Program-made: the position numbers and the translations under genes
DNA from: a virus
Lineage: Duplodnaviria; Heunggongvirae; Uroviricota; Caudoviricetes
IMG/VR virus record: IMGVR_UViG_2802429219_000017
Coordinates: 1 to 20,241 of that record
DNA length: 20,241 nucleotides
Reading direction: 5' to 3' (one strand)
Notes under the pieces: model-generated
What the model saw: only the letters and a program-made list of their open reading frames with translations
What the model was told of the DNA's origin: nothing
Database searches by the model: none
In this document: positions 2,604 to 15,744 of the stretch, piece by piece
Position numbering within the stretch: the stretch's first letter is position 1
Layout of the letters: the number at the start of each line of letters is the position of its first letter

Positions 2604-3692
2604 TCAGGAGCCGATATATTCTGGTTTCATATCTGTCAGTGTCGTTTTATACGCCTCATATAATTCACCCAGATGTGGCCGGGCAGCATTCAGCGTATTT
2701 TCCAGAGCAGTAAATTTTTGTTCTGCATCTGGATCACCGGATGAAGGAAGGTCATTTATCATCTTCTCGATACTGGCAATAGCATTGAGACGGTGATGAC
2801 GCCGAACCACTTTTCCTTTAAGCTCGGCAAAGAATTCGCCGATCTGGTTTTTCTGATCCTCTATCTCTTGGCGTAATGCAGTGGTTTCCTCAGTCGTGGC
2901 CGCGCTTTCGACACGCTGCCGGAATTCATCAATCCACGCTTCGTCAATACGCTGTTCGATGGTTTCTGTTCGCTGCTCGCTTACCTCGCTATAATTCTGT
3001 ACCGGCACAGGATTGATGATTTTTTCCTGTGGCTCTTCCAGTTCGTCCGGGGTATACACGCCCAGGATGACGTCAGGACAATAAAGGCGAGCCCAGTATT
3101 TCAACGCCAGATAGGCGAGCTGTTGTTTCGGGTTTGAGGTCCATAAAGGAGAATTACGCGTAATCACGCTGGAAAGAAACACCGGTTCTCCCCAGGTAAT
3201 CTCACTTTCACCGCGAAGAACTGCACCAACTCGAACTGAGAGACCATACTCATCTTCACTGGTCCAACATGGGATCGTTTCTTTTTTCTCATAGATTCCG
3301 CCTCCTTTGGCCGTTTTCTTAACGGTCTCCACTCGGGTGCGAGAGCATTTCTCCCAGTCTCCCTCGTACTTGTAATGGAAGCGGCCTACAATTGCACTTG
3401 AGCTAGAGATCACAGCGTTAACCAGTTGTGCTTCATAACCCAGAACTCCGTTTACCAGGTGTGTTTTCTGAGCCACAGCGTAGGGGTTCATGCCCCATTG
3501 CATGGCTTGCATGATGATTGCCATGCAGTCGGCAGGCTTTCCGCGAAGGTGATCGGGAACTGTGACGGTGGCCTGTGACATCAACCCGGCTACTTCCTGA
3601 AGTTGCGTCAACGCCTGAACGTTAAAAATAGTGTTACTGGCAGAAATGGTATTTGGTGTCTGCTCTGTCGTGATGATATTGGTATTTTGCAT
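2604..3692 (-). CDS. Single-strand annealing recombinase in the RecT position (divergent from K-12 RecT)
   Basis: Sits immediately downstream of recE with overlapping stop/start. GGAGAA SD favours the ATG at 3692 (MQNTNIIT...); the ORF is open to 3707. The RecT-family call rests on position and general resemblance only. Confidence 0.65.
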   Translation of the reverse strand: MQNTNIITTEQTPNTISASNTIFNVQALTQLQEVAGLMSQATVTVPDHLRGKPADCMAIIMQAMQWGMNPYAVAQKTHLVNGVLGYEAQLVNAVISSSSAIVGRFHYKYEGDWEKCSRTRVETVKKTAKGGGIYEKKETIPCWTSEDEYGLSVRVGAVLRGESEITWGEPVFLSSVITRNSPLWTSNPKQQLAYLALKYWARLYCPDVILGVYTPDELEEPQEKIINPVPVQNYSEVSEQRTETIEQRIDEAWIDEFRQRVESAATTEETTALRQEIEDQKNQIGEFFAELKGKVVRRHHRLNAIASIEKMINDLPSSGDPDAEQKFTALENTLNAARPHLGELYEAYKTTLTDMKPEYIGS

Positions 3693-7300: not shown

Positions 7301-7471
7301 TTAAAGTTCGTGTGCCATCTGGTCTTTTTCGGCACATATTTCACTACAATATTTTTTCATTTCCGTCGTTGGGATAACTCCACGCATGAAATGAAGTGGT
7401 TTTGTAATGCTTTTGCTTTTTTCAACTTCTTTATTGCAAAGGTGGTAAGCACATTTTATTTTCTTAGTCAT
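7301..7471 (-). CDS. ydaE: YdaE-like small zinc-binding protein (56 aa)
   Basis: Hand-translated from the minus strand (below the ORF-track size cutoff): [56 protein letters not shown]. Start overlaps the kilR stop (ATGGTGATGA). Cys pairs at both ends. Position matches Rac ydaE. Confidence 0.6.
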   Translation of the reverse strand: MTKKIKCAYHLCNKEVEKSKSITKPLHFMRGVIPTTEMKKYCSEICAEKDQMAHEL

Positions 7472-7692
7472 CACCATGACTCCGCCTTTACAGGTAAACC
7501 ATCACGACCGAGGAAGACTTTAATCATGCAGTCAGTAATGCATGTTTTTGTGGTCAGGTTACGAATATAAAGTTTTCGCTTTTTGATATTGTTTGCCGAG
7601 GCGATATATGTCCGACCTTCATGAAGAACATAATCGCCAGGGGTCACACACTGACGTGGTATTTCATCAGTTCCGAAGTGATGAGCAATCAT
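7471..7692 (-). CDS. kilR: KilR cell-division inhibitor (73 aa)
   Basis: [49 protein letters not shown]... matches my memory of Rac KilR. GGAG SD lies 6 nt before the ATG at 7692. Confidence 0.85.
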
Positions 7693-7858
7693 AATTATCT
7701 CCATTTTTACAAATGAATTTTGTCGATGCGGTGCCTGGTGCCTCCAGGTGACGTTAACCAGTTAACAATTAACGCCGGAGTATTTCACCCATAACTCTTA
7801 CGCTTTTAACTGTTCCGCGTGCGCTGAGCCGCATTCACCGCATCACAAAATTCACTTT

Positions 7859-7916
7859 AAAAAGGACGGACATCAGCCAGCAATGAAACTGATGCCGCCA
7901 AAAGGTAATCAACATG
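7859..7916 (-). ncRNA. Candidate DicF-like sRNA 3' module: minus-strand hairpin plus U-run upstream of kilR
   Basis: Minus strand reads ...UUUUGGCGGCAUCAGUUUCAUUGCUGGCUGAUGUCCGUCCUUUUU: an ~11-bp stem with two bulges followed by U5. It occupies the dicF position (immediately before the division inhibitor, in a dicA/dicC-controlled operon). Resemblance to DicF is from imperfect memory. Confidence 0.35.
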
Positions 7917-8149
7917 GGTTGTTGCAGCGGGGTTGTCACTCAAGCGTATGGTCAACCTGACAACCCGGTGCTCCACAGGGGGAGGGAGAATAGCACCCCT
8001 GCCATACTTACCGCCGCGCCATTTCGCGGATTGCCACAACCGGAAGCGCACGGTCGAAGAAATTTAACGACAAGCCTTCTAAGGGAAAAACATCACCTCC
8101 GTGCGCTTTCGTGTTGTGCGCCTGTCTTTTTTTACCACTTCAGGCTCGG

Positions 8150-8158
8150 TGGTATACT
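8150..8158 (+). promoter_or_regulatory. Extended -10 promoter element (TGgTATACT) for the downstream zinc-ribbon gene
   Basis: TG-n-TATACT at 8150-8158, about 33 nt upstream of the ATG at 8191, preceded by a T-run at 8124-8131. The -35 is weak. Confidence 0.4.
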
Positions 8159-8190: not shown

Positions 8191-8469
8191 ATGGTAATTA
8201 CTTCACTCTGCCCTGTTTGTTTGGCTACATCTTCTGTGCAGACTTTAGTTGAAGGGCAGCGCGAGTTTTTGAAAATTTATCATTGTCCAAATCATGGTAG
8301 TTTTGCCGTTCTTCCTGACCTTGATGTGAAATTGCAAGCAATGAGGTGTTCATCGGGTTATAAGATTGAACATTCGGAAGAGGCTATCAGGCTCGATGCA
8401 CGCTTACGTGAAAGCATACGCCCAGTAGATGGTCCTCAGTCGAAAATTCCAGTATTCCGCTCTGTCTAG
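8191..8469 (+). CDS. Small zinc-ribbon protein (92 aa), function unknown, in the sieB slot
   Basis: ORF MVITSLCPVCLATSSVQ...HCPNHGSF... with AAGGAA SD 6 nt upstream. CPxC...CPNH motif. Convergent to the leftward operon, the orientation of sieB in Rac. Confidence 0.6.
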   Translation: MVITSLCPVCLATSSVQTLVEGQREFLKIYHCPNHGSFAVLPDLDVKLQAMRCSSGYKIEHSEEAIRLDARLRESIRPVDGPQSKIPVFRSV

Positions 8470-8989: not shown

Positions 8990-9397
8990 TTATTGATGTT
9001 TGTTACGTTTGCGAGCTTCTAGTAGCTCGGTGAATAGGCGATTAAAATTCTCAACGCGGGCACGGAGTTCGCTGATTTGTGCTTGCTGCTCTGATTTTGG
9101 AAGTGCGCGATACAATCGCAACATCTCCAACTCATCTTCCGATAAGTCTAAGGCGCTGTTGAGTGCAACTGGTGGATCTGGTGTTTTATCCTCGTCACCA
9201 AACAGTATCCAAGTTGGTGAACATTGCAATACCTCAGCCAGGCGATGCAAATTTTGCCCGCGCGGGGCTGTATGGTCGCTTTCCCATAGTGAAATTGATG
9301 AGCCAGATACGCCAGCAGCTTTGCTTAAATCGTTTTGACTTAAACCAACCTGTTTGCGTCTTTCTCTAATTCGTTGACCTAAAGTTTTCTCGTTCAT
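8990..9397 (-). CDS. dicA: Prophage repressor, DicA-type XRE-family HTH protein (135 aa, no peptidase domain)
   Basis: HTH region LGQRIRERRKQVGLSQNDLSKAAGVS... and the ...LQCSPTWILFGDEDK... segment match my memory of Qin DicA, which is also 135 aa. Confidence 0.8.
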   Translation of the reverse strand: MNEKTLGQRIRERRKQVGLSQNDLSKAAGVSGSSISLWESDHTAPRGQNLHRLAEVLQCSPTWILFGDEDKTPDPPVALNSALDLSEDELEMLRLYRALPKSEQQAQISELRARVENFNRLFTELLEARKRNKHQ

Positions 9398-9418: not shown

Positions 9419-9448
9419 TTGACTTGAGATTCCTTGAGTGATTACTAT
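9419..9448 (+). promoter_or_regulatory. PR-like rightward early promoter (-35 TTGACT, -10 TACTAT) with TTGAG repeats
   Basis: TTGACT at 9419-9424, 17-18 nt spacer, TTACTA/TACTAT at 9442-9448. Direct TTGAG repeats sit in the spacer. Confidence 0.5.
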
Positions 9449-9461
9449 TGAGAAAACTCAA
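9448..9461. promoter_or_regulatory. Operator OR: perfect 14-bp palindrome TTGAGAAAACTCAA at the PR start site
   Basis: Perfect inverted repeat immediately downstream of the PR -10, just upstream of the cro-like SD. Confidence 0.6.
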
Positions 9462-9474
9462 CTTTGGAGGGGTG

Positions 9475-9702
9475 ATGTTTAAATCAGACGTAATTAATTT
9501 TTATGGGACGAAAGCCAAAGTAGCGAAAGCTGCTGGTGTTGATCCATCCGCTGTTTCTCAATGGGGGGAACTGGTTCCTGAAGGTCGCGCGATGCGCCTG
9601 CAAGAGGCATCCGGCGGGGAACTTCAGTATGACCCCAAAGTTTATGACGAATATCGTAAGGCAAAGCGGGCGGGGAAGGTGATTCATGAAAATCAGGCAT
9701 GA
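9475..9702 (+). CDS. dicC: Cro-like regulator, DicC-type (75 aa)
   Basis: MFKSDVINFYGTKAKVAKAAGVDPSAVSQWGELVPEGRAMRLQEASGGELQYDPKVYDEYRK... resembles DicC. GGAGGGG SD precedes the ATG at 9475; the track ORF begins with TTG at 9448. Confidence 0.7.
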   Translation: MFKSDVINFYGTKAKVAKAAGVDPSAVSQWGELVPEGRAMRLQEASGGELQYDPKVYDEYRKAKRAGKVIHENQA

Positions 9703-15378: not shown

Positions 15379-15588
15379 AAACGATTTGCGGGAAAAGGAT
15401 AGTTAAGTAGAATTGCTGCGGGTGCTTGAGGCTATCTGTCTCAGGCATGAACACCAAAGGCAGATAGAGAAAAGCCCCAGTTAACATTACGCGTCCTGCA
15501 AGACGCTTAACATTAATCTGAGGCCAATTTCATGCTAGACACATGTAGGTTAGCCTCTTACGCGCCGAAAGGCAAGGAGAAGCAGGCT

Positions 15589-15744
15589 ATGAAGCAGCAA
15601 AAGGCGATGTTAATCGCCCTGATCGTCATCTGTTTAACCGTCATAGTGACGGCACTGGTAACGAGGAAAGACCTCTGCGAGGTACGAATCCGAACCGGGC
15701 AGACGGAGGTCGCTGTCTTCACAGCTTACGAACCTGAGGAGTAA
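15589..15744 (+). CDS. hok: Hok/Gef-family type I toxin (HokD/RelF-like, 51 aa)
   Basis: MKQQKAMLIALIVICLTVIVTALVTRKDLCEVRIRTGQTEVAVFTAYEPEE matches my memory of the Hok family. AAGGAGAAG SD. An in-frame upstream ATG at 15532 gives a mok-like leader. Confidence 0.85.
   Translation: MKQQKAMLIALIVICLTVIVTALVTRKDLCEVRIRTGQTEVAVFTAYEPEE

Follow-up and report, generated by a model that had tools for sequence, protein, structure and literature searches.

A probable kilR-linked allele of a modular dicF cassette in a Rac-like prophage

The region upstream of the division-inhibitor gene kilR in a Rac-like prophage (minus strand, 8121-7693) appears to be an allele of a modular lambdoid 'dicF cassette', neither a protein gene nor a functional copy of DicF, whose transcript would be processed by the mechanism proposed below; we give this reading a probability of about 60%. 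It comes from a computational analysis of the window, by which we mean the whole 20,241-nt stretch of IMG/VR virus record IMGVR_UViG_2802429219_000017. DicF is a textbook prophage small RNA, and the locus belongs to a known class, that of dicF and its 190-nt DicF species; what the window has is a diverged, kilR-linked allele that is not DicF by test. The reading rests on homology and collinearity, on structural conservation and on the absence of the two DicF seeds.

As a whole, the window is a Rac-like prophage of E. coli type, and the closest complete E. coli genome has 93.7% identity to it over the prophage stretch around the gap upstream of kilR. The allele is uncommon: a search of 5426 complete E. 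coli genomes returned 7 records at ≥99% identity and 71 at 95-99%. The genomic setting comprises the following features.

463-607: SdsR/RyeA, a full-score Rfam match; host locus at the prophage edge.
2169-2347: RalA, a full-score Rfam match; antitoxin RNA of the RalR/RalA system.
7471-7704, minus strand: kilR, so named in relatives, with the Shine-Dalgarno sequence GGAG at 7702-7699; cargo gene 3' of the cassette.
8191-8469, plus strand: 92-aa zinc-ribbon ORF, the right neighbour of the gap upstream of kilR, with a 99-aa minus-strand ORF to its own right.
8990-9397, minus strand: repressor with an HTH_3 domain (Pfam).
9448-9702, plus strand: P22_Cro-like gene (Pfam).
15420-15594: sok, a full-score Rfam match of the hok/sok type.

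The RalA and sok matches mean that the window also holds at least two RNA-antitoxin systems. The RefSeq annotation of relatives places the kilR start at the ATG at 7692. The HTH_3 repressor and its P22_Cro-like neighbour bear out a preliminary description of this DNA, which had recognized a DicA/DicC-type immunity region and had assigned the region upstream of kilR, correctly, to the early transcript (here the early-left one) as a non-coding and structured stretch. The 92-aa ORF occupies the position of sieB in K-12 Rac, has a weak match to the HMPTM N-terminal zinc ribbon (23.4 bits, cut-off 27) and has a promoter-like site of its own at 8131-8158; the early-left transcript would need to cross this ORF in antisense.

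A multiple alignment that included phages Tritos and mEp460 showed the minus strand from 8121 to 7693 to be collinear with the ydfC-dicF-dicB intergenic region of K-12 Qin, with kilR replacing dicB, and the collinearity with Qin is base-for-base from 8110 to 7693. BLAST returned ~82% identity over ~430 nt to dicF loci in 21 phages; DicF or dicB is annotated in phages such as Tritos and mEp460. The window and Qin share one order of elements (RNase III hairpin, ~125-nt domain, AU-rich spacer, terminator, long helix, structured spacer, division-inhibitor gene) and the terminator base UUUGGCGG/CCGCC with its U tail. The GC-rich part 5' of the DicF core is nearly identical in the alignment, the ~125-nt domain being near-identical as judged by eye rather than by an identity figure, and the DicF core is the least conserved part. 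The two loci differ in the loop and upper stem of the hairpin, in ~10 nt of the 5' seed arm that are gone from the window, in the downstream gene (kilR versus dicB) and upstream, where the window has the opposite-strand zinc-ribbon gene and Qin has ydfABC. The elements of the cassette, all on the minus strand, are these.

8121-8033: H1, a long hairpin of ~20 bp; 5' arm 8121-8099, 3' arm 8053-8033 (repeats I2 and I5).
8045-7919: core domain, a predicted four-way junction with pseudoknot (model R1, 129.9 bits).
8040-8033 with 7928-7921: P0, the closing helix (repeat finder, I4).
8029-8014: H2.
8007-8002 with 7951-7946: pseudoknot, GUAUGG pairing with CCAUAC in the H4 loop.
8001-7976: H3, with a CU-rich loop.
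7966-7930: H4 (repeat finder, I3).
7920-7900: AU-rich spacer AACCCAUGUUGAUUACCUUUU, single-stranded, where DicF has its 5' arm and RNase E site (alignments).
7899-7859: DicF-position intrinsic terminator, allele 'type B', made up of an 11-bp stem in which one U is bulged, loop UUUCAUUGCUGG and U5.
7875-7685: STnc100-like spacer (39.5 bits, E=7e-7).
~7863-7836 with 7733-7705: long-range helix of 23-30 bp that closes three hairpins (fold and repeat I1).
7776-7750: TTAAC hairpin, within the STnc100-like spacer.
7748-7734: CCUGG-AGGCA-CCAGG hairpin, within the STnc100-like spacer.

Four features of this region had been listed in the preliminary description, and all four are present at coordinates that were exact or within 1 nt: a hairpin followed by U5, an inverted repeat (GGAAGCGCACGG at 8042-8053 against CCGTGCGCTTTC at 8099-8110), a CCTGG-TGCCT-CCAGG hairpin at 7734-7748 and TTAAC copies at 7754, 7762 and 7769. 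The repeat finder extended the inverted repeat to 13 nt at 92% complementarity (I2), and on the minus strand the TTAAC copies form a 10-bp hairpin (7776 to 7750). The processing of the Qin transcript places these features in a common frame. The polycistronic RNA of Qin dicBp gives rise to three species: one of 190 nt, with a 5' end generated by RNase III; a DicF species of 53 nt, with a 5' end generated by RNase E; and a DicF species of 72 nt, for which RNase III generates the 3' end in transcripts that read through (bioRxiv 10.1101/2023.04.14.536235; PMC9438474). The 72-nt species ends ~19 nt into the long-range helix (PMC9438474), and the 190-nt and 53-nt species accumulate as stable RNAs (bioRxiv 10.1101/2023.04.14.536235). 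Counting from the 3' end of Qin DicF, 190 nt back falls within the 3' arm of H1 and 19 nt forward falls inside the 5' strand of the long-range helix. Thus the listed features are not independent oddities; the inverted repeat, the CCTGG hairpin and the TTAAC repeats correspond to the two stems cut by RNase III in the dicBF transcript and to its dicF-dicB spacer.

H1 contains the 8042/8099 inverted repeat, folds from 8121 to 8033 with z=-2.4 against shuffles and is conserved in the alignment in Qin, Tritos, mEp460 and K-12 Rac. RNase III cleavage at the H1 stem has been demonstrated in Qin (bioRxiv 10.1101/2023.04.14.536235); H1 of the window is the counterpart of the stem that forms the 5' end of the 190-nt Qin DicF, and by analogy it would be cut as well. 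Two RNase III transcriptome papers gave no site data for this locus. The long-range helix matches the 3' RNase III site of the Qin read-through RNA. In the predicted fold of the long precursor, H1 forms in place of P0: the 3' arm of H1 is paired inside H1, so that P0 cannot form. A cut of H1 by RNase III would be expected, on this folding model, to free the 3' arm for P0.

Three relatives (L013, L027 and L070) have lost the interior of H1, its 5' arm being joined straight to H2, so that P0 cannot form; their model R1 scores are lower, at 92-113 bits. H1/P0 appears to be a second deletion-prone joint. Just 5' of H1, a candidate local promoter (TGGTAAAAA) was unsupported by the promoter scan, and the stretch forms a small hairpin (8120-8145, minus strand) instead. 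By eye, its arms are GCCUG..CAGGC in the window and mEp460 type and CCCUGA..UCAGGG in the Qin type, a difference between lineages that speaks for transcription starting further upstream and against a promoter in this stretch.

The hairpin at the position of DicF was found by the terminator scan, in which the number of terminators is not significant by itself (4 found versus 2.5 expected). On the minus strand from 7899 to 7859 it reads GGCGGCAUCAG-UUUCAUUGCUGG-CUGAUG(U)CCGUCC-UUUUU, with 11 pairs and one bulged U. The collinear alignment with Qin confirms that it lies where DicF sits, and its location is that of DicF: early-left operon, structured region 5', division-inhibitor gene 3' and Rho-independent termination. 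It also has the DicF-type base UUUGGCGG/CCG(U/C)CC followed by U5. DicF matures through RNase III and RNase E and depends on Hfq; the window has, in conserved form, both structures that this maturation calls for, H1 and the helix of 23-30 bp. At gathering threshold, an Rfam scan returned nothing in the region upstream of kilR, and the covariance-model scan that had been proposed as a check gave 28.6 bits for DicF (RF00039) on the minus strand from 7914 to 7864 (E=6.5e-4), short of the 48 bits set as gathering score; the K-12 Rac hairpin scores 39.1 bits and Qin DicF 76.7 bits.

Both seeds of DicF are gone. The DicF 5' arm UUUCUGGUGACG, which pairs with xylR and pykA (PMC5069750), is absent from the window in the alignments; ~10 nt are missing and CCCAUGUUGAUUACCU stands in its place. 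In place of the loop UUUUACUCCGUGAC, which in DicF pairs with the ribosome-binding site of ftsZ, the window has UUUCAUUGCUGG, without CUCCG. Full-length RNAduplex calculations of the hairpin alleles against ftsZ were non-discriminating, shuffles doing equally well, and 28-nt windows were therefore used; with these, the best duplex of the window hairpin with ftsZ is -16.8 kcal/mol, which is weaker than the shuffle mean (z=+1.0; 54 of 60 shuffles at least as good), as against -27.0 kcal/mol for canonical DicF in its published register (PMC5069750). Judged from its sequence, the hairpin is DicF by position and ancestry and is not DicF by the defining tests. The 5' arm and loop of the hairpin RNA are unlike those of DicF; were it to act in trans, it would have targets other than ftsZ, xylR and pykA. 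The suggestion that a DicF-family small RNA is made here thus holds for the locus, the position and the non-coding structure, and fails on the DicF threshold, the 5' arm and ftsZ pairing; the comparison with the Qin dicF copy likewise gave a collinear locus with the 5' arm and loop lost.

The ~125-nt core domain, a strongly conserved folded element, lies 5' of the terminator, with 21 nt between them. In the isolated 188-nt RNA the minimum free energy fold consists of the P0, H2, H3 and H4 helices plus the terminator, and its energy is not unusual (z=-1.2). P0 and H4 were also returned independently as inverted repeats by the repeat finder. Covariation was assessed in two alignments. A MAFFT alignment of 29 sequences, in which H3 was left out because its 3' strand was misaligned, had 97.7% of cells paired versus 28-56% with slid partners, and 7 pairs changed on both sides, a number matched by 0 of 500 shuffles. 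H3 was assessed through per-sequence folds and a model-fitted alignment, the latter biased towards the structure. That alignment, of 68 distinct sequences, had 10 pairs changed on both sides and exceeded 500 of 500 shuffles in five of five measures; one H3 pair occurs as GC, CG, UA, AU and GU. H3 has about ten stem types among relatives, and its loop is CU-rich in every case (UCCUUCC, UCCUCC, CUCC). For the pseudoknot, P7 and the lambdoid phages have GUAUGG:CCAUAC, P1, a close relative of P7, has GCAUGG:CCAUGC, and two lineages have the U-G intermediate. An H4 change in one relative (L042) was rejected as compensatory and counted as a U-G pair plus a C-A mismatch. These figures support a four-way junction with a pseudoknot, with the qualifications that the structure was derived from the same sequences that served to test it, that alignment A4 was fitted to the model, that part of the covariation comes from a few lineages only (P1/P7, type F), and that the viral-contig homologues were fetched with a pattern fixing 25 core bases, which limits diversity and leaves much of the core invariant.

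The domain has no match in Rfam even in a permissive scan (E up to 10), which over the region returned only DicF, STnc100 and two chance miRNA matches. A C4-type antisense RNA of P1/P7 was rejected because C4 is absent from that scan, which returned no tRNA either, and a tRNA-like or tmRNA-like identity was rejected because ARAGORN finds nothing. The helices P0, H2, H3 and H4, the GYAUGG:CCAURC pairing and the CU-rich H3 loop place the domain with the 5' domain of the 190-nt DicF species and the P1 'dicF-like region'.

Coding potential is lacking by several tests. The two ORFs in the 430-base gap have no Pfam match, and no forward-strand ORF of ≥35 aa runs across the core domain in relatives. 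The H3 segment is 25-31 nt long in relatives, with lengths in all three phases and 1-nt differences between near-identical copies, so that a reading frame across H3 is ruled out. A protein-coding reading was rejected on the Pfam result and these frame-breaking indels, which also uphold the earlier statement that the ~430 nt lack any protein-like ORF. The 439-nt minus-strand RNA folds with z=-3.3, better than 100 of 100 shuffles.

Relatives show what accompanies the domain. Pattern scans fetched 132 loci with the conserved core; a genome-contig scan yielded 12 loci only, its pattern being too strict. The core is always followed by a terminator hairpin in these relatives, and the hairpins are of at least eight kinds among the 132 loci, canonical DicF being the commonest. 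Common to all of them are a U tail and the base UUUGGCGG...CCGCC; upper stem, loop and 5' arm vary. Earlier DicF surveys took in only near-identical copies, >99% identical (PMC5069750). The element is always in the early-left operon, 3' of the repressor gene, and the cargo genes 3' of it include dicB, kilR, RdgC-like and YfdQ-like genes. Hairpin and cargo do not go together in fixed pairs: the hairpin type of the window, which is paired with kilR, occurs also in L070 and L120; canonical DicF lies directly upstream of kilR in L055 and L058; and the type C hairpin is found with kilR in L004 and with dicB in L020, L121 and L127. By these sequence comparisons, the cassette is modular, with hairpin alleles shuffled against dicB or kilR.

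Four loci (L017 from Trabulsiella, L019 from Erwinia, the IMG/VR contig L063 and L142 from Salmonella phage F1055) have a long terminator hairpin 3' of the core, with a Shine-Dalgarno sequence and start codon in its loop (AGGAG..AUGUUCUACCGUGGUACCGCCUUUUUU). A short ORF starts in the loop and runs through the 3' half of the terminator; translation-coupled control of termination is possible in these loci.

The spacer between terminator and kilR aligns with the full length of the STnc100 model (RF02076; positions 1-206) and has in common with it the CACC-GGAGGCACC-GGCACC hairpin and the closing helix. Its score of 39.5 bits is below the gathering score of 47, as is that of the Qin dicF-dicB spacer (34.4 bits). 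Among 54 distinct relatives the spacer is near-invariant, and most changes in the long helix exchange C and U across from G, or A and G across from U, so that pairing is kept. STnc100 is reported to be related to PasD, which is found close to the Q gene, in the late region (bioRxiv 10.64898/2026.05.13.724894); the spacer of the window is in the early-left operon. Phage P1 (L006) has a second, partial STnc100-like match (2842-2961, plus strand, 33.4 bits) in the ban operon, 3' of the two tRNA genes and 5' of tciA; P1 thus has both halves of the cassette, separated.

The K-12 Rac prophage has the same kilR, the same STnc100-like spacer (~91% identity over window positions 7471-7878), the same hairpin stem GGCGGCAUCAG/CUGAUGUCCGCC and a retained H1. 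It differs in its hairpin loop and 5' arm, and the four-way junction has lost its interior in a clean deletion that joins GGUUGU to AAAUAACGACAUUG; a search with model R1 gave no match in K-12 Rac. The domain is therefore not essential for prophage maintenance. The terminator hairpin upstream of kilR in K-12 MG1655 Rac (L005, 2715-3100, minus strand) is DicF-like and unannotated (39.1 bits, threshold 48).

P1 and P7 have the same core of H2, pseudoknot, H3 and H4 (model R1, 89.6 bits), which the P1 record AF234173 labels 'dicF-like region'. As in the window, the transcript is an early, repressor-controlled one and an intrinsic terminator lies within ~20 nt of the domain. In these phages, however, the domain lies ~45 nt 3' of the C1-controlled Pban promoter and has no H1, the closing helix is different, the terminator is their own (GCCCA-UCUUCGG-UGGGC-U6), and tRNA genes and ban are downstream. 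Since P1 has the same domain with an unrelated terminator, we rejected both a riboswitch-like pairing of H2 (CCGCGAAA) with the 5' half of the terminator (UUUGGCGG) and a functional link through the shared heptamer GGCGGUA.

The position of the domain is analogous to that of the HK022 put RNAs, cis-acting processive antiterminators in early transcripts of an N-less lambdoid phage 5' of terminators; this is a functional analogy only. put lies just 3' of an early promoter, binds the zinc-binding domain of the RNA polymerase beta-prime subunit and is ~70 nt long with two stem-loops (PMC9378689), whereas the domain is ~125 nt long with four helices and a pseudoknot. Identity with put was rejected on this difference in architecture and because model R1 finds no match in HK022 at 22-34 kb.

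Tentatively, and at odds that we judge to be against it, the domain may be a distinct, uncurated functional RNA of temperate enterobacterial phages with a specific role, always coupled to a terminator, with DicF as one 'cartridge' allele. Possible roles are modulation of read-through at its own terminator, in put-like or riboswitch-like cis control of delayed-early genes such as kilR, dicB and ban, and action as a stable RNA through the anti-Shine-Dalgarno-like loop of H3. The alternative is that it is a passive segment of the precursor.

From these data we infer each processing step, the promoter and any trans activity, with the RNA ends assigned to the window extrapolated from Qin. The early-left transcript, repressed by the DicA/RacR-type repressor (8990-9397), would probably start at the promoter-like site 8904 to 8876, which matches the consensus at 9 of 12 positions, such sites occurring at chance level in number. 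It would then enter the untranslated stretch of ~430 nt. RNase III would cut H1, and the freed 3' arm (GGUUGUGGC) would pair with GCUGCAAC at 7928-7921, closing the four-way junction with its pseudoknot. Most polymerases would stop at the hairpin and U5 of 7899-7859, giving an RNA of ~188 nt and shielding the toxic kilR gene. RNase E would probably cut in the AU-rich spacer at 7900-7920, trimming it to leave a hairpin RNA of ~45-50 nt. RNA from polymerases that read through would fold the 23-30 bp helix directly 3' of the terminator, and RNase III would cut this helix, which lies directly against the ribosome-binding site of kilR, so that small RNA and kilR message are parted. K-12 kilR is silenced via NusG/Rho-dependent termination (PMC10798246), with which the proposed mechanism fits.

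A simpler account, in which the leader acts purely in cis, would make the hairpin only a terminator or attenuator whose flanks process and stabilize the kilR message, with no trans role. It accords with the control of kilR by termination (PMC10798246), with an ftsZ complementarity of the window hairpin that does not exceed chance, with a window loop that lacks the CU-rich anti-Shine-Dalgarno motif of most other alleles, and with the conservation among all alleles of the stem base UUUGGCGG/CCGCC and U tail only. On the other hand, stable 190-nt and 53-nt forms of the equivalent RNAs build up in Qin, the loops are hypervariable while the stem base stays fixed, a pattern to be expected of diversifying target-recognition sequences, and the strong conservation of the 125-nt domain is left unexplained. 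We consider a purely cis-acting leader rather unlikely, well behind an allele of the cassette with the processing mechanism set out above.

The remaining accounts are far less probable. That the window encodes a functional DicF orthologue, a small RNA that blocks ftsZ translation and works with KilR against cell division, is suggested by the shared position and stem base, by the sub-threshold DicF match and by the true DicF copies upstream of kilR in two relatives; it is contradicted by the size of the shortfall from both the threshold and the Qin score, by the deleted 5' arm and replaced CUCCG loop, and by an ftsZ duplex that most shuffles equal, and we hold it to be very improbable. The chances are slimmer still that a DNA-level element (a recombination linker or a protein-binding site) or a small protein gene lies behind the conservation. 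In its favour, the cassette is bordered by recombination joints, with shuffling of alleles and cargo genes, and a 'hypothetical protein' is annotated here in some phage records; yet compensatory changes keep the helices on one strand and RNAs of the Qin copy have been detected experimentally, which speak against a DNA element, and the three phases of H3, the Pfam result and the want of an ORF across the core speak against a protein.

Together, these results suggest that the dicF locus is a modular cassette with three parts (a folded domain under deep conservation, a terminator hairpin that can be swapped, and a processing spacer that is conserved), that this cassette recombines freely before toxic cargo genes of different kinds, dicB and kilR among them, and that K-12 Rac carries a decayed copy upstream of kilR. 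The domain without an Rfam family and the cartridge-like diversity of the hairpins go beyond what the preliminary description had claimed and are the more interesting lead. Should the hairpin alleles prove to be genuine small RNAs, prophages would possess a regulator family whose members act on different host targets. If the domain controls its terminator, this would explain gene expression past the terminator in phages without N protein and would add an extra layer to the silencing of kilR.
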